From Patescibacteria group bacterium (GTDB lineage: Bacteria > Patescibacteriota > Patescibacteriia > PEXW01): 64,000 nt of DNA. The stretch covers positions 9,978-73,977 of the forward strand of contig JBAZBR010000002.1 in NCBI GenBank assembly GCA_041671325.1, given 5' to 3'. The notes under the pieces are model-generated. The model saw nothing but the letters and a program-made list of their open reading frames with translations. It did not search any database and was not told where the DNA came from. This document shows positions 3,301-50,718 of this stretch, piece by piece. Positions within the stretch are counted from its first letter, which is position 1. Each line of letters starts with the position of its first letter. The position numbers and the translations under genes are program-made.

Positions 3301-4620
3301 CAGTTAAACCAAGAATACACTCAGGCTGAACAGCATACCAAAGCTGAAGAAGACAACCTCAAGCGCCTGCAGACCATTTCTAAAGGCAAGGTGGATAAGC
3401 TGATGGGTGATTATAATTCCTTGAATCAGCAACGGCAAACAACGACAGATCCCAGGCAGGCTTCTGAGTATGCCCGGCAAATGAACGCCATCAACGGCCA
3501 AGTCCAGGCCGAGAAAAATAAAGTTTCGGAGCAGCAAAAACGAGTTGAAGCCAGCCGCCAGAATTTTGCGGAAAAGCAGAAACAATTAAGCTTGCAAAAT
3601 TCATTGACTAAGAAATTTGAAGCCGAACAGGCCGCCAAAGAAGCAGGCTATGCCGCGACCATTCCTGGCCAGAAAAATGAAGTCCAACAGGAAAGAATGG
3701 AAGCTGAAAAAGTTCTGCCCGGCATCAATCAAAAGTTTGAGCAGAAAAAGACGGTGGCAGAAAAAGCCTTTGCTGAGCTGGAAGAATTTCAAAAGGGAAA
3801 AGAGATGAATCCGGAAATTAGAAAAATGCTTAAAGATGCTGAAGCCAGCAGAAAGGGTAAACATAAGAAAACTTTGAAATATCAGCTTGGCAAGGCTGAA
3901 AATCTTGCCTCCGCGATTCCATTTGAGGAGCGATACACTGTTGCGGGGACAGGCAAAGCCGATCCTGAGTTGCAACAAAAAATTAGATCTGCCGCTCAAG
4001 CTCAAGCTGAATTTGAACAAGCTGAACAAGAAAAAGCCAGTCAAGACGCTAAAGTCAATGCTTTGAAGACAAGGGAAGCGCAATTGCAAGGGGCGCAAAA
4101 AGCCGCCAGGCCAGTTGCGCCAAAAGCTGTCCCGCCTCCAGTTGCGCAGCCAGCCGTTTCAAAACCAGCCCCTCGCCAAGCAACCGCAGCTAGAACCGTT
4201 ACTCAACCGGCTGCTAAAGCGCCAGAAAAGTCGGTTGCAGAAGCTGAGGCCCCGGCAACGCCAATATCGGTAGAGCAGGTAAATAGGAATAACACTATTA
4301 TTCACGAAGAAATAAAAGGTGCTATGCCCAAGGCGCCCAGCGATTTACGTGATATATTTAAGGTTAATCCAGCGTCATATGACAATCTTTTAAGGCAAAT
4401 TCCTTTTATGAGAGAGTTGAATAATCGTTTGAGGTTTGGTTTTGAAAAAATGTTCAAAGCTAGTAATGTTTCTGATATTACCCAAGAAGCAATTCGGAAA
4501 CAGCTTGCTAATTTACAAAAACACACTAATAACAATGATAGCGACAGTTATAGGGAAGAATTGAAAAAACTGCATGGATTAATTAGTTCCAATTCCGGCG
4601 GAGCAAGCGAAGAAGAGTAA
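301..4620 (+). CDS. TrbL/VirB6-like polytopic membrane protein (N-terminal ~300 aa with multiple TM helices) followed by a ~1100-aa charged, coiled-coil-rich (K/E/Q/A) C-terminal extension with Pro/Ala-rich tail
   Basis: Multi-TM N-terminus with VirB6-like hydrophobic pattern, then long low-complexity coiled-coil region. Lies in an operon with VirB3/VirB4-like genes. Confidence 0.5.
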   Translation: MLNRLRLMLNWLKKNPAKGSLLVLPIIAVLVYILVPHSARAAITFEGAIVGVLGWIFSFFVYILGNILVKFIDLLVWVAQYNDFINAEAVRVGWTVVRDLANMFFIVALLVISFGTVFRIQEYRYNRLLSKVIIMAVLINFSKMIAAFFIDVSQVIMLTFVNAFKDMAAGNLTSGFGIDNIVSFSQDVSAQGGDISVTSVAGAMFAAVIMLFVATVVVAIFTLYLVQRIVMLWIYIILSPMAYMLAVFPGSLGSFWSTWWRDFTQYVIRGPVIAFFLWLALTIISLSQATSTGTILGTNPNESQVGQLGGGVDVSEQQKDLSATASKATTSANILNYLMAVGLLVAGLMQTAKAGGAAGSVAGKWMGNFQKWGGAMATSPIGMAKGVLKRPAYGVAGAALGTAARLPLVGTTFGKLNARMQRQRQRAEEKDTDWINYADERTVKRLALAQINLTEGGRKESKIARERLLKKNELKNYKTEDQDRVLNDYRRDIGYKEKERSHGDFHVSYRDSYGGQILEDAYRKNPSLRGRGYAGASPSKQAYLDAEMKKLAQRMTLDDFAKSEPKSWEDNAANAPWLAQALPILDARLGATGSEFLHRFDANVPESVKDTIRTTMGGRGYTTAFQEEIDQEMQKRTAEQVAEYEARGLDFHESAEYRAAPKGTYYDKNTYGLNERQRQRVEERMKLTKEQGDADLTAGISMFAKGSSNMLAVDQDVLDKAGIKLAAGGHVKDKRQLTQLAGALSEKLNSDITDIEGQISGIALEEADMEQPTGMDASGRQMTQADQNPQRMQEIAARREALEAKRENFVQARNRLQSGKGLEDMQFINKDSYVGNRWNLIAEEATHKKMDQMDPDGSFRKGLMGNMSPEEIQSITQAMRAKTGDETLSDERAFEEYLTKGLVNVRGEKYADTMPDAVKLKSGLALDIKRQAEAKGVKISMAGLEPEEIEAPGKVGGVSSRLGALGRKVTQPYREVREASQKSQIARSAEATMASQEKLDQLNQEYTQAEQHTKAEEDNLKRLQTISKGKVDKLMGDYNSLNQQRQTTTDPRQASEYARQMNAINGQVQAEKNKVSEQQKRVEASRQNFAEKQKQLSLQNSLTKKFEAEQAAKEAGYAATIPGQKNEVQQERMEAEKVLPGINQKFEQKKTVAEKAFAELEEFQKGKEMNPEIRKMLKDAEASRKGKHKKTLKYQLGKAENLASAIPFEERYTVAGTGKADPELQQKIRSAAQAQAEFEQAEQEKASQDAKVNALKTREAQLQGAQKAARPVAPKAVPPPVAQPAVSKPAPRQATAARTVTQPAAKAPEKSVAEAEAPATPISVEQVNRNNTIIHEEIKGAMPKAPSDLRDIFKVNPASYDNLLRQIPFMRELNNRLRFGFEKMFKASNVSDITQEAIRKQLANLQKHTNNNDSDSYREELKKLHGLISSNSGGASEEE

Positions 4621-4628
4621 TATTTTAG

Positions 4629-4781
4629 CCCCTCTCCTATATAGGAGAGGGTGGCCACTGGCCGGGTAAGGTGGGGAAAAACGTAATCCAATTATTCTGA
4701 GCGCCCTCACCCCCGCTTCCTGCCCACCGTACTTCGTCTGCGAAGGCAGGCGGGCGCGTACCCTCTCCCAGAGGGAGAGGG
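4629..4781. repeat. solo GC-rich palindromic repeat cluster (MITE-like) with the same end motifs as the DUF559 elements
   Basis: Contains cccctctcctatataggagagggtgg, ggtaaggtgggg, ccctcaccc and ccctctcccagagggagaggg. Confidence 0.6.
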
Positions 4782-4835
4782 ATTAAAAAATAAGATTTTT
4801 CGACTTCGCTCGTAAAGACAAATTAAAAAAATAAA

Positions 4836-6188
4836 ATGCCAGATTCCTTATTATTAAAATTTCAAAAGTTACCCGATTTGACCAAATCTCGCGCTTCCGA
4901 CCCGGAAGCCATGCGGGTGCTTGACCAATTGGAAAAAGATTTCAGCTTAAACTTGGCTGAATTAGTCATGCGGGTTTTAGTTAAGGAAGTTGCACCGGAA
5001 AAAATTGACGAAGCTTTGAATTTGCAATATTCAGTCGACAGAACCAAAGCCAAGGAGGTTGCTCAAGCCATGCTGGATCGTCTATTTTTCCATTTTCATC
5101 TCTTGGAATTGCCAGATGTTTCCCAAGACAAATCTAAAGAAGGCGAACCTTTAAAACCCCAAAGCGGGGCAAATCCCTATTTGGTTCATCCAGATGATGA
5201 AAAAGATATTTTAACCCATCAAAAATTTCTGCAAAATCCCCCTGCCCAGACAGTCGATACTGATTTTGAAAAGGTGGTCAACCGGATTGTCCAAATGGAA
5301 AGGCTGCAATTGGATGAGATTACCAAGCGGCGCTTTGAAAAAGTTATTGAATCAAGGCTGGTAGACGTTAGGGATAAATTAGAAACCAGGGATATTCTGG
5401 TCCGATCGGAAAAAATTGGCGGCATGGGTTTTGATGATGCCAGGGCTGAAAGGATTGTTGCTGAATTGGAAAGGGTGGTTGAAGAAATTCACCGTCGGCC
5501 TAAGCCTGTGATTGAAAAACCAAAACCAGCCATTCAACCAAAACCAATTCCTCCTCCACCCCCACCCCCGCCTAAAGTTCAGGTTGATCTGAAACCAAAG
5601 GCCGAAAACGAAATTCCTAAACCAGTTCCGAAACCAGTCATGCCAAAACCACCCGAAATCCAATCAACACCAGTTTCAATTTCTACCATTGAAAAACCAA
5701 AAAAGATTGTGGCGCCGCCACCCTGGTTCAGGCCATCAAATATCCCCGCAGTTGCTCAGCCCAGCCAGCCAGTGCAGTCAGCGGTTACGTTCAAGCCAAA
5801 ACCAATTGCCCCGCCCCAACCCAGCTACCAAGAAATGGTTACCGATGTTCGGGCACCGGTTAAGGTAATGGGCCCGATTGAAGTTTTAGCCAGCCTGACT
5901 TTGGAAGATTTTCGGAGGTTAGGCGTTGACCCAGAAGCCAGAACTAAAAAAATTATTGATGAAATTGAAGCCTTAGGTAAAGATTCTTTTGGCCAAAAAG
6001 CGGCCGGTATCCAAGCTTGGCGAAAATCCCCGACTTTCCAAAATTACCTTCAGATCGGGCAAATGGCCATGGAAAAGAAAGAGGATTTAACTGACATTAT
6101 CCAGTTGTTAAAAGCCCAGGGCAAGCCCTCTTTAGGTACGGATGAATTTGAGGCTATTGGCGCCCTCATGAGGCAATTTAGATTTTAA
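4836..6188 (+). CDS. hypothetical proline-rich protein (PKP/PPPPPPPP tract) with no TM segment
   Basis: 450-aa ORF with ATG start, in operon context. Confidence 0.5.
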   Translation: MPDSLLLKFQKLPDLTKSRASDPEAMRVLDQLEKDFSLNLAELVMRVLVKEVAPEKIDEALNLQYSVDRTKAKEVAQAMLDRLFFHFHLLELPDVSQDKSKEGEPLKPQSGANPYLVHPDDEKDILTHQKFLQNPPAQTVDTDFEKVVNRIVQMERLQLDEITKRRFEKVIESRLVDVRDKLETRDILVRSEKIGGMGFDDARAERIVAELERVVEEIHRRPKPVIEKPKPAIQPKPIPPPPPPPPKVQVDLKPKAENEIPKPVPKPVMPKPPEIQSTPVSISTIEKPKKIVAPPPWFRPSNIPAVAQPSQPVQSAVTFKPKPIAPPQPSYQEMVTDVRAPVKVMGPIEVLASLTLEDFRRLGVDPEARTKKIIDEIEALGKDSFGQKAAGIQAWRKSPTFQNYLQIGQMAMEKKEDLTDIIQLLKAQGKPSLGTDEFEAIGALMRQFRF

Positions 6189-6191
6189 TTT

Positions 6192-6671
6192 ATGATGCAA
6201 TTTGTAGTTCCCCAATTCATTGATGTCGAAGACAAGATTTTAGGGCCTTTAACCGTCCGCCAATTCTTGTTGCTCTTAGCCTGGGGTATTGTAGGTTTTT
6301 TATCCTTCAAGATCATGAGCTTCTTTACCTTCATATTTTTTGCAATTTTTTGGTCGGGTTTTATTTTTCTGCTGGCTTTTATCAAAATCAACGGCCGGCC
6401 TTTCCATTATTTCATCCTTTCAATTTTGCAGACCGAACGCATGCCAAAGTTGCGCATCTGGCATAAGGAAGATACTGAATATGAATTCCGTTTTGCGGCC
6501 GCCAAGGCCTTAAAACCAAAAACCCCGATAGCCCAAAAGCAGCCCCTCACCGCTTCCCGACTGACCGAACTTTCCTTAGTCGTAGATACTGGCGGCGTTT
6601 ATGATGAAACCGGCGATGTGGTGGCTGAAACTTTAAAAAATTCCAATGGCAAATACAGACCGACAAATTAA
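6192..6671 (+). CDS. PrgI/VirB3-like small T4SS membrane protein
   Basis: N-terminus MMQFVVPQFIDVEDKILGPLTVRQFLLLLAWGIVGFLSF matches the PrgI-family pattern (acidic motif, then GPLT..RQF and two TM helices). Directly upstream of and overlapping VirB4. Confidence 0.5.
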   Translation: MMQFVVPQFIDVEDKILGPLTVRQFLLLLAWGIVGFLSFKIMSFFTFIFFAIFWSGFIFLLAFIKINGRPFHYFILSILQTERMPKLRIWHKEDTEYEFRFAAAKALKPKTPIAQKQPLTASRLTELSLVVDTGGVYDETGDVVAETLKNSNGKYRPTN

Positions 6672-7326
6672 ACTCAAAGCCCCATCAACCCAAAAGTTCT
6701 TGGATGTCTGGGAAATCAAGGATGATGTAGTCATCTTGAAAAACGGCACTATCCGGAGCGTGCTTTTGGTTTCTTCCATGAATTTTGCTCTAAAAAGCGA
6801 CGAGGAGCAGGCGGCTGTCATTCAGGCTTACACTCAATACTTGAATATTATCGATTTTCCTTTGCAGATAGTCATCCAATCCAGGAAGTTGAACATTGAC
6901 CCTTATTTGGACAACCTTAAAGTCATTGAGAAAGCCCAAACCAACGAGCTTTTAAAAATGCAAACCCAAGAATACATCACTTACGTCAAAGAGCTGGTTG
7001 AGTTGGCCGATATTATGTCCAAAAGGTTTTACGTGGTCGTGCCTTTTGAACAAATTACCAAGAAGCGCCAAGGCTTTTTCAAGCGCTTGACGACCGTCAT
7101 TTCGCCCACTAACGTCATCCATATCAAGCAAAAAAGGTTTTTGGAAATGCGGGATGACTTGATGAAGCGGGTTGATTTTGTGGTGGATGGGCTTTCCGGA
7201 CTGGGCTTAAAAGCAGTACCCCTGGATACCCAAGGCTTGATTGAACTTTTTTATACGACCTATAACCCGCAAACTTCTGATCAGCAGAAGTTGGGGAATT
7301 TTGAACAATTGAGCGTTGAAAAATAA
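6646..7326 (+). CDS. VirB4/TraC/TrbE-family ATPase, N-terminal (CagE_TrbE_VirB-like) portion, separate ORF
   Basis: N-terminal region typical of Gram-positive-type VirB4. Ends with TAA overlapping the ATG of the next ORF (TAATG). Confidence 0.55.
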   Translation: MANTDRQIKLKAPSTQKFLDVWEIKDDVVILKNGTIRSVLLVSSMNFALKSDEEQAAVIQAYTQYLNIIDFPLQIVIQSRKLNIDPYLDNLKVIEKAQTNELLKMQTQEYITYVKELVELADIMSKRFYVVVPFEQITKKRQGFFKRLTTVISPTNVIHIKQKRFLEMRDDLMKRVDFVVDGLSGLGLKAVPLDTQGLIELFYTTYNPQTSDQQKLGNFEQLSVEK

Positions 7327-9224
7327 TGGCCATTAATTTATCCAAAAAACCCAAGGCAATGCAAGCGGAAACCCTTCCGCCTGTTCAAATTATGACTGAG
7401 GAAGAGGTGCAGCAGCAGTCAGGAATTGAATTGCAACGGAAGCGGGAAATGCTTGAGGCCGAAAGAATTTACCGCCGGGGCGTGGTTTCGGTTAGGGATT
7501 TTATTGCCCCGGCCTCGTTCAAAGTTTCAGCCAAAGAGGTGGAAATCGGCGGCAAGCTAGCCCGAACCATGTTCATCGTCACCTACCCTCGGTATATTGC
7601 CGTGGGTTGGTTTGCCCCAATTATTAATTTGAACGTGCCTTTGGATGTTTCCATGTTTTTCTACCCCGTCGGTTCAGAAGTGGTGCTCAAGCAATTACGC
7701 AATAAGGTAGGCCAATTGGAAGCCCAAATTTTATCAGATGCGGAAAAAGGCGCGCCCCGCGATCCAATTCGGGAAACGGCCTTGCGGGACATTGAACAGC
7801 TCCGCGATAATTTGACCCAAGGTACGGAAAAATTTTTCCAAGTTGCGCTTTATGTAACTCTTTATGGCGATAATAAAGAGGATTTGGACAAGCTCAGCGA
7901 TAAGGTCGAGTCTATGTTTGGCTCTAAATTGGTTTTTAGCAAGCGCGTCCTATACCAGGCTGAGCAAGGTTTTAATTCAACCTTACCCATTGGCAAAGAT
8001 GAATTGCAGGTATATTTCAACATGAATTCTTCGCCAGCGGCCAGCAGTTTCCCTTTTATTTCTTCAGATGTTTCTTCAGACAATGGCATACTTTATGGCA
8101 TTAACCGCCATAATAATTCTTTGATCCTATTTGACCGCTTTAGCCTGCAAAACGCGAATTTTGTGGTTTTTGCCACTTCTGGTGCGGGCAAAAGCTATGC
8201 CGTCAAGTTGGAAATACTCCGTTCGCTCATGGTTGGCACGGATGTTATCGTCATTGACCCTGAAAGGGAATATAAATATTTATCCGATGCGGTTGGCGGC
8301 ACTTATATCAACATCTCCTTGAATTCTGAATCAAAAATCAATCCCTTTGATTTGCCTCGGGCGGTTGGCGGCGCGGAAAAACCAGCAGACATCATCCGGG
8401 CCGCGGTCATTACTTTAAAAGGCATGTTGCGGCTTATGCTAGGCACCGTAACTCCAGAGGAAGATTCAATCATCGATCGGGCCTTGATTGAAACCTATGC
8501 CAAAAAAGACATAACTGCCGAATCCGATCTGACTACGGTTGAACCGCCATTGATGGCGGATTTCCAAGAGGTTTTATCCGGCATGGTTGGCGCTGAAGGC
8601 ATAACTGAAAGGATTAAAAAATACACCGAAGGCACCTTTTCCGGCCTCTTTAACAGTCCCACCAATATTGAACTCAGGAACCAGTTAGTCACCTTTTCCG
8701 TAAGGGATTTGGAAGATGAATTAAGGCCGATTGGCATTTCCATCATCGTCTCTTATATTTGGAATGTAGTCAGGTCGCAGCTGAAAAAGAGGATTTTGGT
8801 TATTGATGAAGCCTGGTGGCTGATGCAGAACGAAGATTCGGCCAAATTCATTTATGCTTTGGTTAAACGCTGCCGGAAATATTATTTGGGTGTCACGACC
8901 ATAACCCAAGACGTGAATGATTTCTTGCGTTCGCCCTATGGCCAGGCCATTGTCACTAATTCGGCTTTGCAGCTGCTCATGAAACAGTCGCCCGCGGGCA
9001 TTGATATGATCGCCAAGACTTTCATGCTGACCCAAGGTGAAAAATATTTATTGCTGGAAGCCGCGGTTGGCGAAGGTATATTTTTTGCCGGGCCCAAGCA
9101 TGCGGCCATAAAAGTCGTGGCTTCGTACACAGAAGACCAAATAATCACCTCTGACCCCAGGCAGCTTTTGGAAATCGAGGCGGCCAAAAAGGAATTTAAT
9201 GAAAGCAATCCCCAATCCAGTTAA
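7326..9224 (+). CDS. virB4: VirB4/TraC/TrbE-family T4SS ATPase, C-terminal ATPase portion
   Basis: Walker A FATSGAGKSY. VIDPEREY and VIDEAWW (Walker B-like) motifs. Architecture typical of VirB4. Confidence 0.8.
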   Translation: MAINLSKKPKAMQAETLPPVQIMTEEEVQQQSGIELQRKREMLEAERIYRRGVVSVRDFIAPASFKVSAKEVEIGGKLARTMFIVTYPRYIAVGWFAPIINLNVPLDVSMFFYPVGSEVVLKQLRNKVGQLEAQILSDAEKGAPRDPIRETALRDIEQLRDNLTQGTEKFFQVALYVTLYGDNKEDLDKLSDKVESMFGSKLVFSKRVLYQAEQGFNSTLPIGKDELQVYFNMNSSPAASSFPFISSDVSSDNGILYGINRHNNSLILFDRFSLQNANFVVFATSGAGKSYAVKLEILRSLMVGTDVIVIDPEREYKYLSDAVGGTYINISLNSESKINPFDLPRAVGGAEKPADIIRAAVITLKGMLRLMLGTVTPEEDSIIDRALIETYAKKDITAESDLTTVEPPLMADFQEVLSGMVGAEGITERIKKYTEGTFSGLFNSPTNIELRNQLVTFSVRDLEDELRPIGISIIVSYIWNVVRSQLKKRILVIDEAWWLMQNEDSAKFIYALVKRCRKYYLGVTTITQDVNDFLRSPYGQAIVTNSALQLLMKQSPAGIDMIAKTFMLTQGEKYLLLEAAVGEGIFFAGPKHAAIKVVASYTEDQIITSDPRQLLEIEAAKKEFNESNPQSS

Positions 9225-9239
9225 ATCTTAAAAAATAAT

Positions 9240-9836
9240 ATGTCAAAAAAGCTATTAATCATTCTTGCTGGAGCCGTAATTATTACCCTTGCCCTTTTAG
9301 TTTTATTATTCGTTTGGCAAAAGAAGGCGCCTAGCAACACTAATGCCAAAAATACCAATGCCAAAATCCCCAATATCAACACGGTGATTGTCAACCAAAA
9401 CTCAAACCAGAACGCAAACACCCAGCCAGTTGATTCAAATATCAATGACAAGCTTACAGTCCAGCAAGTTGCCCGGAGTTTCGCCGGTATATACGGAAGT
9501 TTTTCCACCCAAAATGATTTTCAGAATATCACTGATTTGTATTTTTACATGACCCCGCAACTGAAAGCCCAGCAAGAGGGCTATGTCGCCACCGAAAGGC
9601 AAAACCGCAAAGATAATTCTCTGTATCGGGGCATCACTTCGGAAGTCCGGATTGTAAATTTGGAAAGTTTTGACGCCCAAAACAAGACCGCGACCGTTAA
9701 AATCTCCTTGCAAAGAGTCGAATCAAGCGGCAGCACCAGCGAGAGTACCAATTATTACCAGGACATCACTTTAAGTTTTGAAAAACAGGATGGCGTCTGG
9801 AAAGTCGGCAAAATTGTTTGGGGGCCTAAGCAATAA
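9240..9836 (+). CDS. bitopic membrane protein with N-terminal TM, Asn-rich linker and C-terminal NTF2-like domain. Possible VirB8-like T4SS component.
   Basis: TM helix at aa 6-26. C-terminal ~120 aa resembles an NTF2-like fold. Position immediately after VirB4. Confidence 0.35.
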   Translation: MSKKLLIILAGAVIITLALLVLLFVWQKKAPSNTNAKNTNAKIPNINTVIVNQNSNQNANTQPVDSNINDKLTVQQVARSFAGIYGSFSTQNDFQNITDLYFYMTPQLKAQQEGYVATERQNRKDNSLYRGITSEVRIVNLESFDAQNKTATVKISLQRVESSGSTSESTNYYQDITLSFEKQDGVWKVGKIVWGPKQ

Positions 9837-9844
9837 TAGCTATT

Positions 9845-10558
9845 ATGGCAACTGCACAAGAAAATCAGCGATTAAGTGCGTTGACGCAAAGTAGTATAGT
9901 AAATAAAAGATTACAGGATGATATTTCAAAATTGACCAAGACGGATTTTCCCACGTGGGATGCGGCCCAAAGCGAACAAGGCAGGATGCAGATGGATTCA
10001 ATTATGGACAGGCAGACAAATAACAGAAGTTCAATACGTACTTCAGCTGATCAGCAAAAACAGGAACAAGGCAGGCTTTCAAGCCGTTTGAAACAATTAC
10101 GCAATATTAGAAAACAGTACGTTGATCAATTAGCCGCCAGCCCGATGGCCGAAGCCGTTACAGTCGCAAACCAGGCTTGGGCAAAGCAAGTGGATCTTTG
10201 GCAATCAGGCTTGGCTATTGGGGTTTGGGGTTTTGATATTGTGGTTTCGGATTGGCTTTTTATTTTGATTTGGCTGGCCAGGGTTTTTTCTCCTCTATTG
10301 CCCAAGCCGCGAGGGTTGCAGATTGTCCCGAGTTATAGCCTGAGAACCATGGGTGGCATTGGCACGGCCATCAGCCACGCCGGGACTGCCTTTTTTGCCG
10401 GGATTTGCTACTTAATCATCATTGTTTTTGTCGGGATAATCGCTTGGTTTGTCATGCAAATAGTCAATGGGAGCTTTTTGGAAAAAATTCAGGCGCTCTA
10501 TTATTTATTTACAGGCCCGTTGACGCCAATTTATGATGTGTTACAAAGCGCTTTATGA
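9845..10558 (+). CDS. hypothetical membrane protein with N-terminal coiled-coil and C-terminal 3-4 TM helices
   Basis: ORF with 4-nt overlap to the next gene. Hydrophobic C-terminus. Confidence 0.45.
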   Translation: MATAQENQRLSALTQSSIVNKRLQDDISKLTKTDFPTWDAAQSEQGRMQMDSIMDRQTNNRSSIRTSADQQKQEQGRLSSRLKQLRNIRKQYVDQLAASPMAEAVTVANQAWAKQVDLWQSGLAIGVWGFDIVVSDWLFILIWLARVFSPLLPKPRGLQIVPSYSLRTMGGIGTAISHAGTAFFAGICYLIIIVFVGIIAWFVMQIVNGSFLEKIQALYYLFTGPLTPIYDVLQSAL

Positions 10559-11754
10559 AGCAGTTTAAATTACTAATCATATTTTTTTTCGCCATTGCCG
10601 CTTTTTTATTTTCCCAACCGGTAAAAGCGGCTCTGGTGAGTTGTGATGAAAACGCAAAAGATTCAAATGGCAACTACATGAATGCTGGGCAAATTGAGCT
10701 GAAATGGATCCATGTCCAATTGCCCATTCCCGGGGTTACGGCGAATTGCGTTGATGACCAAGGCAAGAGCGTGGCCTATATCCAAGACCTCGGAGCCTAT
10801 ATTGCCGGCATGTATAAGTGGTTTTCCGGCGCCATTGGCATCCTGGCCGCCGTCATGGTCATGTACGGCGGGATAAAATGGATGGTGGCCGCGGGCAACC
10901 GCAGCCGAGTCCAAGACGCCAAAGAAACGGTTTTTACCGCCCTTATCGCCGTGGTAATTGCCCTCGGTTCTTATCTCTTGCTTTTTGTCATTAACCCAAA
11001 ATTAGTCAACTTACGGCCGCCAGCCTTGAGCACGGTCAAGCCAGTTTTGCAGAGCTTTGCCATGTGCCCGACCTTTAAAATTTGCCTATCCGGAACTAAC
11101 AAAGGCCAAGCCTGCGTCTTAGACACGGCCTGCGGGGCGCCGGCTAATTCCGGCGCTTGCGACTATGCCGTGGACGTGGGGACGGATATAGAACCAACAT
11201 GCGGCAATGAATACACTTATCGGGAAAAAGCCACGGGTTCTGGCACGTGTCGTGGTTCAGTCTGCCATGATAAGGACAAAAATGTCACTAATGATGTTTG
11301 TACGCTTGGCACCTGGAAGGACTCTGTTTTTTTGCCCAAGGCAATTGGTGGGACTTCTTGGGGCTGTACATCACCCGTACGACAATGCGAATCCATTACC
11401 GATGATAACGGTTCGGCGGCAGATTGTTCGCAATTTAGCATTGCCGGAAAAGGTAAGTGTGCTTGGATAGATTATCCTATGCTTGATCCAAAATCTGATG
11501 GTTGTTATTGGTTCCCAGTGCTTGAATGCGAACAGGGATATGAACGAGTTGGGTGTGATATATGTAATAATTCCGAACCGTTTGTCATTACTCAGTGTAA
11601 TCTTCAGCGTTGTTCCGAAGGGAGACTTTCAAAATGTATTTCGACTCAAGGAGAAATAGTATATTCTAATGATCTAACCCCAGACAAAAAAAATTGTAAG
11701 TCTATTTGTTGTAGAAAAGTTGGCGATACTGACTTAAAATGTTCAGCCCAATAA
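10555..11754 (+). CDS. secreted Cys-rich protein containing a TrbC/VirB2-like T4SS-pilin hairpin (two hydrophobic helices, MYGGIKWMVAAGN motif) and a ~240-aa C-terminal domain with about 28 cysteines
   Basis: Signal peptide MKQFKLLIIFFFAIAAFLFSQPVKA. Pilin-like helix-loop-helix at aa ~78-152. Paralogous to aa 170-245 of the gene at 13696. Confidence 0.55.
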   Translation: MKQFKLLIIFFFAIAAFLFSQPVKAALVSCDENAKDSNGNYMNAGQIELKWIHVQLPIPGVTANCVDDQGKSVAYIQDLGAYIAGMYKWFSGAIGILAAVMVMYGGIKWMVAAGNRSRVQDAKETVFTALIAVVIALGSYLLLFVINPKLVNLRPPALSTVKPVLQSFAMCPTFKICLSGTNKGQACVLDTACGAPANSGACDYAVDVGTDIEPTCGNEYTYREKATGSGTCRGSVCHDKDKNVTNDVCTLGTWKDSVFLPKAIGGTSWGCTSPVRQCESITDDNGSAADCSQFSIAGKGKCAWIDYPMLDPKSDGCYWFPVLECEQGYERVGCDICNNSEPFVITQCNLQRCSEGRLSKCISTQGEIVYSNDLTPDKKNCKSICCRKVGDTDLKCSAQ

Positions 11755-11802
11755 TATAGATTTATTCCTTATCGCCTGGATTTTTAATGCTATTATGAAT
11801 AT

Positions 11803-13059
11803 ATGAACCGTCGAACCTTAGTAATCCTTGCCTTTATAATCGGGGTTATTGCCATCGGTTTTGTTTTGTATATCATGTTTTTCAAACCCTTGCCCCCAGC
11901 CGTCAACCAGAATGGCAACCTTAACACTAATTCGGTTTTGCCTAATATAAACGGCAATGTCAATCGGCCCCAAAATGTTAATGGCGGCTTGCCAAATATC
12001 AATACTGCAAATGTTAATAAGCCCACGGCTAATGTGAATGCCGGTCCGGCAGTCATTGCTGATGGCGGGGATACCCAAGTAAAGACTTTGATTTCCGCGA
12101 ATGCTTTTGACACGGTTATTGATGCCAAAGGCAATTTGCGCTACTACGATAAAGCCTCTGGCCAATTTTTCAAACTTGACGAAAACGGGAATTTAATCGC
12201 CTTGTCCCAAGTCAAGTTTCCTGAAGCCGAAGATATTGCCTGGTCGCCCAGCCGGAGCCAGGTCATAGTCAGTTTTCCGGATGATTCCAAAATCTTTTAT
12301 GATTTTGAAAATAAAAAACAGGCGACTTTGCCCAAAGAAGGCCAAGATTTCAGTTTTGATCCCACTGGCACGCAGATTGCATTCAAGTACAATGCCGCCA
12401 ATGAAGCTGACCGTTTTTTGGTGGTGTCCAGCCCAGACGGCAGTTCCATAACCCCAATTGAACCTTTGGGTGAAAACGGGAGCAGGGTCCAAGTCAACTG
12501 GTCGCCTAACAACCAAGTCATTGCCACTTATTCTCCAGGCCTGAATGATACTAGCCAGGAAGTGCTTTTAGTCGGCAAAAATGGCGAAACTTTTAAATCC
12601 ATAGCCACAGCTGGCCGGGGTTTTGAAGGCACATGGTCTTCTAATGGCCAGCAAATGTTATATAGCGTTTATAATGCCCAAACAAACTATAATCCCACTT
12701 TGTATATAGTAAATGCCCAAGGCGATGCCGCCGGTACGAATAACCGGCCTTTGGAAATTAACACCTGGTCTGACAAATGCACTTTTAACAAGGCCGGCAC
12801 CTCGATTTATTGCGCCGTGCCTGACACTTCAAGTTTACCGGCGGGCAGCGGGATTTACCGTAACCAGGCAAACAACACCACGGATTCTTTTTATTCAGTC
12901 GACCTTTTAACCGGGGCTAAGAACAAGTTAGCCGTGCCAGTTGGGTCTGATGGCAGCCGCCAGTTTTCCGCTAAAAACCTGTGGCTTTCGGCTGATGGCA
13001 GCACTTTATATTTTACCGACGGCCCCACTGGCAAGGTTTTAGAGATGAAAATCCATTAA
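11803..13059 (+). CDS. membrane-anchored PD40/TolB-like beta-propeller protein with Asn-rich linker
   Basis: N-terminal TM. Repeated WSP/WSPN/WSSNG-type propeller blades. Confidence 0.5.
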   Translation: MNRRTLVILAFIIGVIAIGFVLYIMFFKPLPPAVNQNGNLNTNSVLPNINGNVNRPQNVNGGLPNINTANVNKPTANVNAGPAVIADGGDTQVKTLISANAFDTVIDAKGNLRYYDKASGQFFKLDENGNLIALSQVKFPEAEDIAWSPSRSQVIVSFPDDSKIFYDFENKKQATLPKEGQDFSFDPTGTQIAFKYNAANEADRFLVVSSPDGSSITPIEPLGENGSRVQVNWSPNNQVIATYSPGLNDTSQEVLLVGKNGETFKSIATAGRGFEGTWSSNGQQMLYSVYNAQTNYNPTLYIVNAQGDAAGTNNRPLEINTWSDKCTFNKAGTSIYCAVPDTSSLPAGSGIYRNQANNTTDSFYSVDLLTGAKNKLAVPVGSDGSRQFSAKNLWLSADGSTLYFTDGPTGKVLEMKIH

Positions 13060-13066
13060 AACTAGT

Positions 13067-13699
13067 ATGCAAAAAAGGGAAAATATTTTTTTTCTGATCT
13101 TCGGTGGCCTAGCCGTGCTGGTTTTGGTTGTCCTAATGATAAACACTTTTAGCACGAAAAAGGTGATAAAAGATTTATCCCCAAGGATTTTCAGCACCGA
13201 TCCCTATTTAGGCAAGTCCAATGCCAAGGTTACTTTAGTCATTTTTACGGACTTTGAATGCGAATATTGCCGGGCAGAAGTGCCGATTTTAAAAAGCCTT
13301 ATGGCCAGCAATCAAAATTCCGTCAAATTGGTATATAAAGATTATCCTTTAAGCATCCACAAAAACGCCAGGCGGGCGGCGGAAATTGCCAGGTGCGCCC
13401 AAGACCAAGGCGGCGGCCAGGGAAAATTTTGGGCCATGCATGACCAATTGTTCCAGAACCAGGATACTTTGGGCGCTTTAGATTTAGAGAAAATAAGCAA
13501 AGACGTGGACATTGATTCGGCCAAATTAAAGGCTTGTTTGGACTCCCAAGCTGCGGCTAAACGCATTGATGATAATATTGCTGAAGGCCAGCGCTTGAAT
13601 GTTACGGAAACCCCGACGCTTTTTGTGAATGAAAGGCGGATTACCGGCTTGAATGAAGAATCAGTCATCCAAACTTATATTAACCATGTATTGCAATGA
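13067..13699 (+). CDS. DsbA-family thiol:disulfide oxidoreductase (thioredoxin fold, CEYC active site), membrane anchored
   Basis: FTDFECEYCRAEVP CxxC motif. DsbA-like length. N-terminal TM. Confidence 0.7.
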   Translation: MQKRENIFFLIFGGLAVLVLVVLMINTFSTKKVIKDLSPRIFSTDPYLGKSNAKVTLVIFTDFECEYCRAEVPILKSLMASNQNSVKLVYKDYPLSIHKNARRAAEIARCAQDQGGGQGKFWAMHDQLFQNQDTLGALDLEKISKDVDIDSAKLKACLDSQAAAKRIDDNIAEGQRLNVTETPTLFVNERRITGLNEESVIQTYINHVLQ

Positions 13700-15057
13700 A
13701 AGTCTTGAGGCTTTTATTTTTATCAGCATTTTTATTAACGGGACTTTTGGCATTTCCAGGTAATGGAAAAGCTGGTTGCTGCCTTTGCGGGAATTTAAAT
13801 GACGACAATTTTCAATGTCTAATAAATGTTACTGAGGCCGAGTGCAATTCTTGCGGTAATTTCCCCCATCCGTTTTATGAGACCAATGATGCCTGTACGA
13901 ATTTTTGCGCCAAGCCAGTTGATGTTAGTTTAAAAAATTGCTGTGTTTATACGGGCAAGATAGATAAATTAGTAAAGGAATGCAAAGCCGTCCAGGATGA
14001 AACTTCCTGCCAGACAGGTGAATTTGAAATTAACCGGAAAGAATATATTGCCCAGGATTGCGCCAAACAGCCCCAATGCAGTTTAATCGGATCAAAGTAT
14101 GTAGCAGAAAAAAAATCAGACATATATTTCAAGCCCCAGGTTTCTTTGCTTGGTTCAAAATTTATCGCTGGTGAGGAAATTGTCATAACCGGCAATACTT
14201 TAGGCGAATACATTGCCGCCTTTTACGTCTTTTTTGTTTCAGCAATTGCTATTTTGGCTGCGGTCATGATTATGTATGGAGGCATTAAATGGCTGGTGGC
14301 TGGCGGCAATCGTGGCCAAGTCCAAAATGCCAAAGAGCAGATTACTTCAGCGATTATCGGCTTATTAATCGCTTTTGCCGCTTATCTATTATTGCTTTCC
14401 ATCAGCCCAAAATTGGTCAAGTTTACCAGCCTGAATATAACCAGCATCAAACCAATTGAGCAGGCCATAAATAAGCAAGAAATCGCTTATGGTTCAAAGG
14501 GCAACCCCTTGGGAAAAGCTACTATGTCAAAAACTTGGTACGAAAACGTAAAAGCCAAATATGGCTCATTTGTTGCCACAGCAGCAAAAAATACCGGTAT
14601 TGATGAGAATTTAATTTACGCCATAATGTTCGTGGAATCTGGTGGGCAACCCAATTTGTCATCTGAAGCGGGCGCTTGCGGCTTAATGCAATTATTGCCG
14701 GCAACTGCCAGCCAAGTCATGAAAACCGGAGTCTCCTGTTCTGATTTATACAACCCTTCATTTGGGATTGCGGCGGGCGCGGCTTACTTGGCACAGCTTA
14801 AGGAGGATACTTGCCCTGATCATGCCATGAAAAAAGACGAGAGTATTGTTTCCTGCACGCCCAGCTTAACCAAGTGTACGGATGGCGATTTAATGTTTGT
14901 GATTGCGGCATATAACGGCGGCCAAGGGGCTAATTGCAGCAGCGTAGATTGTCCAGGCCAGACCTGGTGGGAATGTCCGGTTAATACTGGTTATCAGCAA
15001 ACCAGGGATTATGTCATAAAAGTCCAGAACAATTTGAAAATAATTAGTGATTATTAG
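13696..15057 (+). CDS. secreted fusion protein with an N-terminal Cys-rich domain, a TrbC/VirB2-like pilin hairpin, and a C-terminal SLT-type lytic transglycosylase (VirB1-like)
   Basis: Signal peptide. About 20 Cys in aa 27-135. AILAAVMIMYGGIKWLVAGGN pilin-like hairpin. SLT motifs IYAIMFVESGG and ACGLMQL. Confidence 0.65.
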   Translation: MKVLRLLFLSAFLLTGLLAFPGNGKAGCCLCGNLNDDNFQCLINVTEAECNSCGNFPHPFYETNDACTNFCAKPVDVSLKNCCVYTGKIDKLVKECKAVQDETSCQTGEFEINRKEYIAQDCAKQPQCSLIGSKYVAEKKSDIYFKPQVSLLGSKFIAGEEIVITGNTLGEYIAAFYVFFVSAIAILAAVMIMYGGIKWLVAGGNRGQVQNAKEQITSAIIGLLIAFAAYLLLLSISPKLVKFTSLNITSIKPIEQAINKQEIAYGSKGNPLGKATMSKTWYENVKAKYGSFVATAAKNTGIDENLIYAIMFVESGGQPNLSSEAGACGLMQLLPATASQVMKTGVSCSDLYNPSFGIAAGAAYLAQLKEDTCPDHAMKKDESIVSCTPSLTKCTDGDLMFVIAAYNGGQGANCSSVDCPGQTWWECPVNTGYQQTRDYVIKVQNNLKIISDY

Positions 15058-15059
15058 GC

Positions 15060-16397
15060 ATGCCAAAAATTGAAACAATTTATTCATGCTCAAACTGTGA
15101 TGCGCAATTCCCCAAGTGGCTGGGTCGCTGCCCTGAATGCGGCAGTTGGGGGACTGTGGAAGCAGCCGGGCCAAAACCCGCAGCTGCCCATCAAGCCATA
15201 AAAGGCAAGCCAGGCCAAACCCAAAATTTTGAAAGCATTTTAAGCGAGCATATCCAAAGGGTAACAAGCGGAATTGAGGAATTTGACCGGACTATTGGCG
15301 GTGGGATTGTGCCGGGTTCTTTAATTTTGCTTGGCGGTGAACCAGGCATCGGCAAATCAACCTTGGCTTTGCAAATTACTTCTGGCTTAAAAGGCCAAGT
15401 TTTGTATGTGTCTGGGGAAGAATCTGCCAACCAGGTCAAATTGAGATATGAGCGCCTGAAAATAGAAGCTTCACAGGTTAATTTCCTGCCAGCAACGGAT
15501 TTACCCACGGTCTTAGCTACTTTGGAAGCGGAAAAACCAAGTTTGGCTGTAATTGATTCTATTCAAACAGTTTTTGACCCAACCTTGCCGTCAGAAGCTG
15601 GTTCCATTGTCCAAGTCAGGGTAGCTTGCGTCAAGCTTATGGAAGTCGCCAAGCGCCTACATATCCCGCTAATTTTAATCGGCCATGTGACCAAAGAAGG
15701 TTCAATTGCCGGTCCTAGGGTCTTGGAACATTTAGTTGACTGTGTTTTGACTATGGAAGGTGATCCTTACCATGCTTATCGTTTGTTGCGCGCCACCAAG
15801 AACCGGTTTGGGCCAACTGATGAGGTGGGGGTTTTTGACATGGCAGAATCTGGCTTGGTTGAGGTTAAAAATCCTTCAGCCAGGTTTCTGGCCGAACGGG
15901 ATGCCCAGATCAGCGGTTCCAGCGTGGTGCCGATAATTGAAGGCACCCGGGTTTTTCTTTTGGAAATCCAAGCCTTGGTTTCCACCACGGTTTTTGGCTA
16001 TCCCCGCCGGGTGACTTCAGGTTTTGATTTGAATCGCTTGCAACTATTATTGGCAGTTCTAACCAAAAGATCAGGCTTGGCTTTAGGTAACCAAGACGTG
16101 CATTTAAATATTGTTGGCGGTTTTAAAGTGGATGAACCAGCCGCAGACTTGGCAGTTTGCCTGGCCGTTGCTTCGTCTTTAAGCAATAAACCCCTACCGC
16201 CGTTATTAGCTGCGGTGGGTGAAGTTGGTTTAGGCGGGGAGATCCGGAGCGTGGCGAATTTTGAACGCCGGGTTGCGGAAGTGGAAAAGCTGGGTTTTAA
16301 AACTTTAATTGCCCCCCAAAACTCAAAATCTGGCAAATCTAAAATAGAAATAATTACGGCTAGGTCAATAATTGACGCCTTAAAATTCATTAAATAA
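15060..16397 (+). CDS. radA: DNA repair protein RadA/Sms
   Basis: C4 zinc finger CSNCDAQFPKWLGRCPECGSW. Walker A GGEPGIGKST. KNRFG motif. Lon-like C-terminal domain. Confidence 0.9.
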   Translation: MPKIETIYSCSNCDAQFPKWLGRCPECGSWGTVEAAGPKPAAAHQAIKGKPGQTQNFESILSEHIQRVTSGIEEFDRTIGGGIVPGSLILLGGEPGIGKSTLALQITSGLKGQVLYVSGEESANQVKLRYERLKIEASQVNFLPATDLPTVLATLEAEKPSLAVIDSIQTVFDPTLPSEAGSIVQVRVACVKLMEVAKRLHIPLILIGHVTKEGSIAGPRVLEHLVDCVLTMEGDPYHAYRLLRATKNRFGPTDEVGVFDMAESGLVEVKNPSARFLAERDAQISGSSVVPIIEGTRVFLLEIQALVSTTVFGYPRRVTSGFDLNRLQLLLAVLTKRSGLALGNQDVHLNIVGGFKVDEPAADLAVCLAVASSLSNKPLPPLLAAVGEVGLGGEIRSVANFERRVAEVEKLGFKTLIAPQNSKSGKSKIEIITARSIIDALKFIK

Positions 16398-16450: not shown

Positions 16451-16810
16451 TCAGGCTAGTTCCGCTGGTTTGAGCAGGTCTCGAGGGTCAAACGTGCCAG
16501 CCATAAAGCCCAATTTGATACCATAGTCGTTAAGATCTACGGTAGCACTTTGACCATGAAAAAGGGCCTTTTGAACACGACCAGTCGGTCCGCACAAATG
16601 GTCTGGGAAGCCATGGTCATCAACAGGCATCCCGCATATTTTGCATGCCCTCAAATCACAAGCATATCGACCAGTCGTAACCTGGCCAATTATTACCGGA
16701 AACTGCTGGCACAAATGCGGGACCTGTTGTTGCCGAGTCTTGAAGTCGGGATGTAGTCTTACTGAAGAAATCAGTTTCCCAACCTCTGAATTTCCAGTAA
16801 ATTTACACAT
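16451..16810 (-). CDS. hypothetical Cys/His-containing small protein (119 aa)
   Basis: ORF with GGAGAG SD-like sequence 5 nt upstream of ATG. No recognisable family. Confidence 0.4.
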   Translation of the reverse strand: MCKFTGNSEVGKLISSVRLHPDFKTRQQQVPHLCQQFPVIIGQVTTGRYACDLRACKICGMPVDDHGFPDHLCGPTGRVQKALFHGQSATVDLNDYGIKLGFMAGTFDPRDLLKPAELA

Positions 16811-17629: not shown

Positions 17630-19693
17630 CTATTCCGGGTGGATTAATAAGCCTTTTGCCTCAACAATGGTTTTTAAATACGAATTCACGTTTAATTCAG
17701 GGTCAGTTGATAACAATTTTTGGGCCGTTTCCTTGGTTTCTTCAATCAATTGTTTATCAGTGAGTCTAGCCACTTTAAAGGGCTGGAAGCCGCTTTGCAG
17801 CTCACCCCAGAGTTCACCCGGGCCACGCCGGTTCAAGTCTTCTTCAGCTAAAGCAAACCCGTCCATTAGCTTTGTCATGACTTTCAAACGCTCCAAGGTT
17901 TCTGGATCTTCGGAGCTGGTTGCCAAATAACAGATGCTTGGCAAGGCGGCCCGGCCAATGCGGCCGCGGAATTGGTGGAGCTGGGCCAAGCCAAAACTGT
18001 CGGCGCCTTCAATCAGCATGACCGTGGCATTGGGAATGTCTATGCCGACTTCAACCACGGCTGTGGCCACCAAAACATTGGTTTTGCCTTCAGAAAAAGC
18101 CGTCATAGCATTTTCTTTTTTGTCAGTGGATAATTTGCCGTGGATTAGGCCGACGTTAATTTTATTAAAAATTCCATTTTTCAATTTTTTAAATTCTTCC
18201 ACGGCTGACTTGATGCCAGCCGGGTCAGTTTCAATCCGGGGGCAGATTATGAAGGCTTGTTCGCCCTGTTCTACTCTTTCCAAAATTTTAAAATACGCTT
18301 CATCCCGGTTCCGGTCATCCAAGAGTTTGGTGGCGATAGGTTTTCTTTCTTTGGGCAAATGCGGGATTTGGGAAATGGAAAGGTCGCCCCAGACTGTCAA
18401 GGCTAAGGTCCGGGGAATGGGCGTGGCAGTCAAGGACAGGAAATGCGGAATGCCAATTTGGCTTTTGGAACGCATAATTTTTCTTTGTTCTACGCCAAAC
18501 CGGTGCTGTTCATCCACAATAACTAAAGCTAATTTGGCAAATGTAACATTTTTAGAAATCAAAGCGTGCGTGCCAATGACCAAATCAATTTGATGGTCGG
18601 CTAATTGTTTTAAAAAAATGGGCTTGCTAAGAGCTTTCTCCCCAATATTGGTTTTCCGGCTGGTGCGGGTAAATAATGCCACGCGCGTGCCAAAAGGCGA
18701 TAACAACTTTGAAAGTTTTTCAAAATGCTGGCGAGCCAGGATTTCCGTCGGCGCCAGATATGCAGTTTGGAAGCCAGCTTTAACCACATTTAAAATCGCA
18801 ATGGCGGCAACTACGGTTTTGCCTGAACCCACGTCGCCTTCTAAAAGCCGGTTCATAGGGTAGGGCTTGTCCATATCCTGCAAAATATCCCAGGCAGACC
18901 TTTTTTGGCCAGGAGTCAAGATAAAAGGCAATTTCTGGACAAAACTTACGGTTTCTTCCTGGTGGAAAGGAATCCTGACACTGGGACTTTTTTCAATTTT
19001 CTGTCTTTCCTTTAAAACTGCCAAATGCACAATTAACAATTCCTCAAAAGCCAAACGTCTTTTAGCCGCGGCAATGTCCTCAAAGCTTTTGGGTTGGTGA
19101 AGGAGTTTTAAAGCTAAATTGCCATTGATTAAACTATGTTTTTGCTCCAGATCAACGGGTAATAATTCTGGCAAATAGCTAGCTAAAGGCAGGGTTTGGT
19201 CAATGAAATTTCTTAACTGTTTTTGCGTCAGGCCATCAGTTAAAGGATAAATTGGGATAATTCCGGCAGCATTCAAGGGGTTATCGCGCTTTTCCCAAGC
19301 TGGGTTCATTAAGGTGGTGCCAAAATAGTTATGTTCAACCTTACCAGCCAGCCAAAGATTTTCGCCGGGAATGAGGATTTTTGCCAAATAGGGTTGGTTA
19401 AACCAAACTACTTTTAAAGAACCAGATTCATCAGCAATAATAGCTTCCACCACCAACATCCTCTTCCGTTTTTGCGCCCGGCGGGAGCTTATCAGTTGCA
19501 GTTTGCCCCTGACCGAAACCGTGGCGTTGCCTTTGATATCAGAAATTTTTTCTACTCGGGTCAAATCCTCATACCTATAAGGCAAATGCCAAATTAAATC
19601 CTGGCAAGTTTGGATTTTCAAACGTTTCAAACGGCTGGCCATGGTCGGGCCAACCCCGGCTAATTCCTTAATGGGCGAATTAAAAACAAGCAT
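17630..19693 (-). CDS. recG: ATP-dependent DNA helicase RecG
   Basis: 687 aa. GDVGSGKT Walker A. DEQHRFG DEAH-box. Wedge and helicase domains in the RecG pattern. Confidence 0.9.
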   Translation of the reverse strand: MLVFNSPIKELAGVGPTMASRLKRLKIQTCQDLIWHLPYRYEDLTRVEKISDIKGNATVSVRGKLQLISSRRAQKRKRMLVVEAIIADESGSLKVVWFNQPYLAKILIPGENLWLAGKVEHNYFGTTLMNPAWEKRDNPLNAAGIIPIYPLTDGLTQKQLRNFIDQTLPLASYLPELLPVDLEQKHSLINGNLALKLLHQPKSFEDIAAAKRRLAFEELLIVHLAVLKERQKIEKSPSVRIPFHQEETVSFVQKLPFILTPGQKRSAWDILQDMDKPYPMNRLLEGDVGSGKTVVAAIAILNVVKAGFQTAYLAPTEILARQHFEKLSKLLSPFGTRVALFTRTSRKTNIGEKALSKPIFLKQLADHQIDLVIGTHALISKNVTFAKLALVIVDEQHRFGVEQRKIMRSKSQIGIPHFLSLTATPIPRTLALTVWGDLSISQIPHLPKERKPIATKLLDDRNRDEAYFKILERVEQGEQAFIICPRIETDPAGIKSAVEEFKKLKNGIFNKINVGLIHGKLSTDKKENAMTAFSEGKTNVLVATAVVEVGIDIPNATVMLIEGADSFGLAQLHQFRGRIGRAALPSICYLATSSEDPETLERLKVMTKLMDGFALAEEDLNRRGPGELWGELQSGFQPFKVARLTDKQLIEETKETAQKLLSTDPELNVNSYLKTIVEAKGLLIHPE

Positions 19694-50713: not shown

Positions 50714-50718
50714 AGAAT

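Follow-up and report, generated by a model that had tools for sequence, protein, structure and literature searches.

The 64,000-nucleotide (nt) stretch of DNA under study (“the window”; contig JBAZBR010000002.1 of assembly GCA_041671325.1) is chromosomal DNA of a member of the Patescibacteria, or candidate phyla radiation (CPR), and contains the monoderm-type type IV secretion system (T4SS) locus of this lineage. Two open reading frames (ORFs) of this locus encode paralogous, cysteine-rich proteins that share a pilin-type hairpin of two transmembrane (TM) helices: (i) a protein in which the hairpin is followed by a disulfide-rich C-terminal module (“large pilin”), and (ii) a protein in which it is followed by a lytic transglycosylase (SLT) domain (“pilin-SLT fusion”). 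On balance, it is probable that both are extracytoplasmic T4SS components held on this hairpin, the fusion as the VirB1 equivalent and the large pilin as a variable surface or adhesin module. An earlier, sequence-only reading of the window had delineated the two ORFs, at 10555-11754 and 13696-15057, and these were recovered as stated, with 399 and 453 amino acids (aa). With their extra domains, both proteins exceed the size of small single-domain pilins (roughly 110-150 aa).

The two-helix segment of about 75 aa that this reading had seen in both proteins was found by BLASTP as a single significant and gapless segment of 90 aa (residues 79-168 versus 169-258; 53% identity, 73% positives, E 2e-29), outside of which nothing aligns between the two proteins. 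Its helices, which in the large pilin were placed at residues 79-111 and 116-146 by hydropathy and AlphaFold2 (AF2) modelling, are connected by a GN(R)x(R/Q)VQ(D/N)AKE loop in both cases. Profile and motif comparisons assign the hairpin to the Pfam family PF18895 (T4SS_pilin), the VirB2-like pilin family of Patescibacteria. The fusion matches this family with 37.6 bits (E 2.3e-9; cut-off 26.6); the large pilin (24.1 bits) stays below the cut-off and is assigned to the family because it is a paralogue of the fusion. A profile made from the hairpin only retrieves ordinary patescibacterial pilins of 81-146 aa, and an alignment of these standalone pilins with the window proteins reveals a common P-I-P-G-like motif ahead of the hairpin, the GN...AK loop, and an INPxLVxL tail, at which the small standalone pilins terminate. 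Against PDB sequences, the hairpin profile yielded chance-level matches only. NCBI annotates the proteins identical to the large pilin and to the fusion as “pilin” and as “transglycosylase SLT domain-containing protein”, respectively.

For both proteins, a signal peptide is predicted, the cleavage site of which (after VKA25 in the large pilin and after GKA26 in the fusion) is kept in the homologues (family alignments A1 and A2, respectively). A lipoprotein reading of the conserved A-G-C-C sequence following the signal peptide of the fusion was rejected; since the -3 position misfits the lipobox in most homologues, cleavage by signal peptidase I is preferred. A signal peptide combined with two TM helices implies that both protein ends are extracytoplasmic and, by this topology logic, the SLT part and the Cys-rich modules are predicted to be located outside the cytoplasm, as had been proposed for the latter. 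All Cys residues are situated outside the hairpin, on both of its flanks; the large pilin contains 26 (two N-terminal, 24 within residues 171-396) and the fusion contains 22 (14 within residues 28-128, eight in the SLT domain). Concerning the Cys-rich modules, the sequence-only reading was correct as to their presence, while its counts of about 28 Cys in a ~240-aa module and about 20 Cys in a ~110-aa N-terminal module were too high, given the 24 Cys in 231 residues of the large pilin and the 14 Cys in residues 27-131 of the fusion. In terms of Cys share, the two proteins reach 6.5% and 4.9%; the corresponding figure for 45 other ORFs of the window is 0.91% (binomial p about 2e-14 and 5e-10), and with a Cys content this low overall, the few Cys-rich secreted proteins stand out sharply. 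Window proteins that are Cys-free or Cys-poor are numerous (e.g., VirB4 with one Cys; ClpB and a 1439-aa protein at the head of the operon with none).

The Cys-rich modules of the two proteins are not homologous to one another; this possibility was discarded, as each module matches its own family only, and the N-terminal module of the fusion finds the same module in close relatives only. For the 24-Cys module of the large pilin, a mostly beta structure is predicted, for which neither a significant PDB match nor a fold match was obtained. In distant loci, the large pilins retain the N-terminal part and the hairpin, and their C-terminal modules are unalignable, yet contain 10-22 Cys. This module is a fast-evolving, variable one, with a role in contact or adhesion as the most likely function. 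In the AF2 models, low-confidence linkers flank the hairpin of the fusion (residues 132-140 and 241-259) and follow that of the large pilin (residues 153-167), so that the domains of both proteins look like beads on a string. The model of the fusion has a mean predicted local distance difference test (pLDDT) score of 84, with values above 90 for the SLT domain.

As judged from profiles, alignment and model, this latter domain is a bona fide family-1 lytic transglycosylase, and its catalytic Glu is intact. PF01464 matches with 74.6 bits (E 6e-21; cut-off 21.3), and the motifs ESGG...GLMQL...AAYNGG are all present, with little or no variation in A2; among its 35 homologues, no exchange occurs at E314, S315, G329/Q332 or Y406/N407/G409. 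Profile comparison with MltE, MltC, and Slt70 (E about 1e-16) brings the ES motif and the catalytic Glu into register, and Foldseek retrieved MltC and MltE with the SLT model (E about 7e-7; TM-score 0.64 to MltE). The eight Cys of the domain are family-specific and conserved. At E <= 1, the fusion contains only SLT and pilin domains and no second hydrolase domain of the CHAP, NlpC/P60, or LytM type. A phage lysis cassette, composed of a holin-like hairpin and an SLT domain, was also considered; this is contradicted by the conserved chromosomal T4SS context in 57 species.

According to the reading that we prefer, both proteins would be exported via the Sec route and anchored in the membrane by the VirB2-type hairpin, with both ends outside and the short GN...AK loop in the cytoplasm. 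The hairpin would dock them at the pilin-handling platform of the T4SS, i.e., VirB4 and its polytopic partners. The fusion would then act as a disulfide-stabilised lytic transglycosylase on a flexible tether of ~40 residues, cutting peptidoglycan presumably where the apparatus or a pilus crosses the wall, and the Cys-rich module would face the outside world, possibly as an adhesin. A surface-displayed platform, as suggested in the sequence-only reading, is plausible on these predictions. Where present, a DsbA-like protein would form the 12-13 and about 11 predicted disulfides of the two proteins; that it oxidises both is suggested by the even Cys counts and by gene coupling. The membrane-anchored CxxC thioredoxin-fold protein seen earlier between the two genes indeed has the expected features, comprising a TM segment (residues 3-34), a CEYC motif (residues 65-68; nt 13259-13270) and matches to Thioredoxin_4 (PF13462; 97.8 bits, E 1e-27) and DSBA (PF01323; 65.6 bits, E 6e-18). 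The stop codon of its gene overlaps the start of the fusion gene, so that the two are translationally coupled. The claim that the two proteins possess their own Dsb partner is borne out for the window and close relatives, but for only 12 of 57 related loci. No re-oxidising partner of the DsbB or VKOR type was found in the scanned ORFs, which are a part of all window ORFs.

To judge conservation, loci from one genome per GTDB species were scanned (67 loci), counting neighbours within ±6 kb of the fusion ORF. According to hidden Markov model (HMM) matches, hairpin and SLT domain reside in one ORF at 57 of the 67 species-level loci, and the fusion is thus conserved in related genomes, comprising at least 57 species. 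Three loci (L058, L060, and L070) that appeared to be split, with an SLT gene adjoining an unfused hairpin, were dismissed as such, since all three contain a divergent hairpin in the same ORF. Near the 57 fusions, a second hairpin ORF (40 loci), VirB4 (32), a beta-propeller gene (28), RadA (24) and the DsbA-like gene (12) were found, with the full module of two hairpin ORFs, propeller and VirB4 present at 25 loci. Gene order is kept in five of six fetched loci (L001-L003, L005, and L006; from genomes labelled Parcubacteria, Kerfeldbacteria and Nomurabacteria) as PrgI—TraC-like—VirB4—small membrane protein(s)—large pilin—propeller—(DsbA)—pilin-SLT, usually with RadA and RecG coming next. L004 retains only the trio of DsbA, large pilin and pilin-SLT, away from VirB4. 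In a Falkowbacteria UBA917 locus (L051, 5833-7695), the pilin-SLT gene is directly 5' of a second SLT paralogue, which has a single TM anchor and no hairpin. Nine contigs with a clear patescibacterial T4SS module (L011, L013, L015, L020, L023, L026, L028, L032, and L055) bear the title “uncultured Gammaproteobacteria bacterium” in public records, which presumably stems from mislabelling in that assembly series.

The trio in L004 and the 25 of 57 fusions that have no VirB4 within 6 kb would be compatible with a hairpin that is a mere two-TM anchor; the SLT protein would then serve housekeeping wall remodelling and the Cys-rich protein would be an unrelated surface protein, both independent of the T4SS. 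We regard this as very improbable, considering that 32 of the 57 fusions are VirB4-linked, with a gene order fixed across Parcubacteria-, Kerfeldbacteria-, and Nomurabacteria-labelled genomes, and that the genes overlap or abut in one operon. Furthermore, the hairpin, with its pilin-family motifs, is the most conserved region of both proteins, its mean identity to the window proteins amounting to 71% (large pilin) and 63% (fusion), in comparison to 47% for the SLT domain and 31% (large pilin) and 16% (fusion) for the Cys modules. Constrained more strongly than would be expected of a passive anchor, the hairpin probably makes specific contacts, either to other hairpins or to the platform of the T4SS.

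Several observations also weigh against the T4SS-component reading favoured here. The 25 fusion loci lacking VirB4 within 6 kb, several of which are cut by contig ends, belong to these, as does the absence of DsbA from 45 of the 57 related loci. Neither window protein matches PF04956 (TrbC/VirB2) at E <= 1; both PF18895 and PF04956 are matched by six of 120 standalone pilins, two of 64 long hairpin proteins and SEML1_0018/0019, so that the link to canonical VirB2 is an indirect one. The T4SS pilin identity put forward in the sequence-only reading, therefore, stands with respect to PF18895 and paralogy, and did not find direct support from PF04956. In addition, there is no experiment showing a pilus of any patescibacterial T4SS or the location of either protein, and the adhesin role of the Cys-rich module is based solely on location, variability and disulfide content.

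Within both the 64-kb window and the ±10-kb loci L001-L006, no small standalone pilin was found. This raises the prospect that the fusions themselves are true pilus subunits, with VirB4 extracting the hairpin from the membrane into a filament, where it would most plausibly be a minor subunit or the first one at the tip; the enzyme and the Cys-rich module would ride on the pilus and act on the bacterium's own wall during extrusion and, subsequently, on the host envelope. Conservation is higher in the hairpin than in the catalytic domain; the hairpin also retains the loop and tail motifs of standalone pilins, flexible low-pLDDT linkers flank it, and it occurs in fusions with wall hydrolases of diverse types. 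In the solved conjugative pili (F and T pili), both pilin termini face outwards, which is compatible with appended domains. However, an appended domain of 175-230 residues (20-25 kDa) per subunit is sterically hard to pack, and therefore a minor or tip role at best is likely. Besides, pili have yet to be observed in these organisms, and small pilins may be encoded elsewhere in the genome, considering that the window covers 64 kb of a 229-kb contig. Overall, this possibility appears rather unlikely to us.

Both propilin processing and the release of VirB1* in Agrobacterium are precedents for a further possibility, namely that the fusions are precursors, in which a protease would cut the tail or linker after helix 2 and/or before the PIPG-like motif, liberating a small pilin together with a secreted enzyme or Cys-rich protein. 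It is noteworthy in this context that standalone pilins end exactly at the INPxLVxL tail, beyond which the fusions run on through a disordered linker, and that a ...V.P(I).Q motif after the tail is conserved in both families. Multi-hairpin polyproteins that could need cleavage exist as well. Conversely, no protease gene is conserved in the module (loci L001-L006), a search for motifs that known peptidases cleave yielded none, and the evidence comes from sequence alone; on balance, such processing is improbable. As for the polyproteins, single ORFs with 3 to 16 tandem PF18895 hairpins of consistent topology were encountered (“polypilins”; public proteins P0244, P0257, P0271, and P0302), of which P0244 comprises six clear hairpin repeats in 552 aa. 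These may need processing; no description of them was found.

The distribution of the hairpin is considerably wider. Its profile retrieves 68,055 representatives at E <= 1e-3 among 1.84 billion cluster representatives, and a set of 64 further long single-hairpin proteins match PF18895 without exception. In this set, Pfam recognises SLT (11 proteins), 3D (5), M15/VanY-type (3, 2, and 2), Amidase_5 (1), and NlpC/P60 (1) domains. In every long hairpin-enzyme protein that was checked, the enzyme comes after the hairpin, from which it is separated by a linker of roughly 45-65 residues. Tentatively, and as an unlikely and rather speculative extension, the PF18895 hairpin might be more than a building block of pili, namely a general T4SS hand-over module, by which VirB4 would pull hairpin-tagged enzymes and adhesins from the patescibacterial membrane and mount them on or through the T4SS filament, presenting them at its tip to breach the host envelope. 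If true, the payloads would comprise SLT, 3D, M15, NlpC/P60 and amidase domains in addition to variable disulfide-rich adhesins, and the whole would constitute a pilus-borne drill explaining the essentiality of the T4SS for the epibiotic lifestyle.

Patescibacterial T4SSs are described to be of monoderm (MPF_FATA-like) ancestry and to contain VirB2-like pilins (PMC12102498); in S. epibionticum, the one system studied, they are essential, and so are the small pilins and the separate lysozyme/M15 hydrolases that the T4SS locus encodes (PMC10633639). With the described pilins (PF18895; e.g., S. epibionticum SEML1_0014-0019; PMC12102498, PMC10633639), the window proteins share the hairpin family, a signal peptide, the GN...AK loop and the INPxLV tail; likewise, they adjoin an MPF_FATA-like VirB4 as well as PrgI and occur as more than one paralogue per locus. 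Unlike these pilins, which have 110-146 aa with nothing attached, the window hairpins carry extracytoplasmic domains of 105-230 residues at one or both ends. The two hairpin paralogues are 53% identical, versus an average of 25% in the published pilin arrays, and, in contrast to the described loci, a small pilin is missing from the window locus.

In monoderm T4SSs, VirB1-type hydrolases are normally anchored in the membrane. PrgK (pCF10), TraG (pIP501), CwlT (ICEBs1), and TcpG (pCW3), of which the first three are T4SS hydrolases of Gram-positive bacteria that the fusion resembles in function, are, like the pilin-SLT fusion, membrane-anchored and T4SS-encoded wall hydrolases with a presumed function in wall opening, and the SLT domain of PrgK and TraG is from the same superfamily as the catalytic domain of the fusion. 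However, these enzymes are anchored by a single N-terminal TM helix instead of a pilin-family hairpin; the fusion has a single catalytic domain lacking a CHAP, NlpC/P60 or LytM partner, and it differs further in its extra Cys-rich module at the N-terminus and in its SLT domain, which probably contains four disulfides. With Agrobacterium VirB1/VirB1* and E. coli MltE/EmtA and MltC, it shares the catalytic motifs (ES, GLMQ, AYNGG) and the fold. In those systems, in contrast, enzyme and pilin are separate polypeptides, and the Gram-negative enzymes are periplasmic or lipoprotein-anchored and not Cys-rich. A precedent for the coupling of pilin and transglycosylase is the functional cooperation of VirB1* with VirB2 and VirB5 in pilus formation. 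Thioredoxin-fold oxidoreductases that are tied to a pilin-based machine are likewise known from the F plasmid (TrbB/TraF) and from B. subtilis (BdbD, acting on the pseudopilin ComGC); the window protein, TM-anchored and of the DsbA/BdbD-like Thioredoxin_4 type, is not a TrbB/TraF orthologue, as it matches the TrbB and TraF models only weakly, with scores far below the cut-offs.

The genes at 301-16397 on the + strand (Table 1) lie close together or overlap, and no convincing terminator separates them; a promoter and terminator scan of the window gave nothing informative. Regarding the previous proposal of one operon with VirB4, VirB3-like and VirB6 genes, VirB4 and the PrgI/VirB3-like gene were verified and no model recognised a VirB6. 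The sole, and unproven, VirB6 candidate is the 1439-aa protein, for which Pfam, NCBIfam, and PDB gave no match; an orthologue is found at the same position in related loci (e.g., of 1324 aa in L001). The two small membrane proteins preceding the large pilin have no family match, and the 198-aa one has no PDB sequence match either. Of the PD40 propeller proposed between the two pilin genes, the TM anchor and a propeller-type assignment from weak matches remain, with PD40 itself being sub-threshold (20.3 bits versus a cut-off of 20.9); orthologues of this protein in L001-L003, L005, and L006 match with E 1e-98 to 1e-208.

Table 1. Features of the T4SS locus and of neighbouring genes in the 64-kb window (nt positions).
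Feature	Position	Strand	Details
Cys-free polytopic protein, 1439 aa, operon head	301-4620	+	about 8-10 N-terminal TM segments
Pro-rich protein, 450 aa	4836-6188	+	
PrgI/VirB3-like	6192-6671	+	PF12666, E 9e-9
TraC/TrsD-like	6646-7326	+	TrsD, E 9e-5
VirB4 ATPase, CD1110 family	7326-9224	+	NF045971, E 6e-106
Small membrane protein, 198 aa	9240-9836	+	TM segments; conserved in related loci, E 1e-14 to 1e-86
Small membrane protein, 237 aa	9845-10558	+	TM segments
Large pilin, 399 aa	10555-11754	+	ORF call; 13-member family alignment A1; signal peptide 1-25, N-terminal module (conserved pair C30, C65), hairpin, linker, 24-Cys C-terminal module
Hairpin of large pilin, residues 79-151	10789-11007	+	AF2 helices; conserved GN...AK loop
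C-terminal module of large pilin, residues 169-399	11059-11751	+	24 Cys; disulfide-rich, predicted extracytoplasmic
TM-anchored beta-propeller protein, 418 aa	11803-13059	+	between both pilin genes
DsbA-like thiol:disulfide oxidoreductase, membrane-anchored, 210 aa	13067-13699	+	
Pilin-SLT fusion, 453 aa	13696-15057	+	PF18895, PF01464, AF2, 35-member alignment A2; signal peptide 1-26, 14-Cys module 27-131, pilin domain 141-240, linker 241-278, lytic transglycosylase 279-453
N-terminal Cys-rich module of fusion, residues 27-131	13774-14088	+	Cys positions; begins with conserved GCC
Hairpin of fusion, residues 168-236	14197-14403	+	AF2 helices 168-201 and 206-236
Family-1 lytic transglycosylase (SLT) domain	14530-15054	+	catalytic Glu314 at nt 14635-14637; eight conserved Cys
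RadA	15060-16397	+	begins 3 nt past pilin-SLT stop
RecG	17630-19693	-	
ComF-like phosphoribosyltransferase	27743-28399	-	
PilM	39671-40801		type IV pilus locus
PilB	43907-45670		type IV pilus locus
Response regulator			type IV pilus locus
PilT-like ATPase	46286-47359		type IV pilus locus
PilC	47363-48571		type IV pilus locus
N_methyl pilins (four)			type IV pilus locus
Wzy_C/TPR protein	50698-52446		type IV pilus locus
Prepilin peptidase PilD	53536-54303		type IV pilus locus

The RadA, RecG, and ComF neighbourhood has already been noted for the ABY1 class (PMC12102498); with these genes nearby, the system as a whole might have a role in DNA uptake or recombination. Downstream of RadA, a 119-aa ORF with six Cys (16451-16810, - strand) has a counterpart in L001, and beyond it follows an ORF-poor gap (16.8-17.6 kb), with a stretch of ~820 nt containing no convincing ORF and no Rfam match; a near-consensus promoter-like site is located at 17066-17037 (- strand). 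Farther away, the window includes a complete type IV pilus locus (33746-57456), the pilus genes of which are preceded by two large Cys-rich proteins (33746-35599 with 21 Cys and 35740-39666 with 22 Cys).

In the literature searched, there was no mention of a pilin hairpin fused to hydrolase or Cys-rich domains, nor do the supplements of PMC12102498 mention SLT or pilin fusions. Given that the T4SS pilins of Patescibacteria are already known and that the pilin and SLT two-domain architecture is contained in the precomputed Pfam annotation of >50 public protein clusters, the fusions appear to be undescribed in print rather than undetected. The remark in the sequence-only reading that this architecture is not recognised is, thus, a fair one for characterised systems and does not extend to public annotation; the pilin-SLT layout is not a new class of system.

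Much of bacterial diversity belongs to the Patescibacteria, and the only member amenable to genetics depends on the T4SS and its pilins for life on the host cell. Patescibacterial T4SSs are highlighted in a 2025 review, with no pilus demonstrated for any of them so far (PMC12857230), and according to a 2025 census, most VirB2-containing patescibacterial genomes seem to lack VirB1 (PMC12102498). The pilin-SLT fusion would fill this gap, and the “missing VirB1” may be an annotation gap instead of a real absence. The fusion of a hydrolase to a pilin hairpin across a broad set of lineages is Rosetta-stone-type evidence for a joint function, and fusions of this hairpin to further peptidoglycan hydrolases, as well as to disulfide-rich domains of variable sequence, recur. 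This raises the question of whether a pilus displays these domains and directs them against the wall of the host, or whether their action is confined to the base of the apparatus. The finding is a lead for both T4SS and CPR biology, since it offers a physical link between pilin and hydrolase that extends to several hydrolase families.

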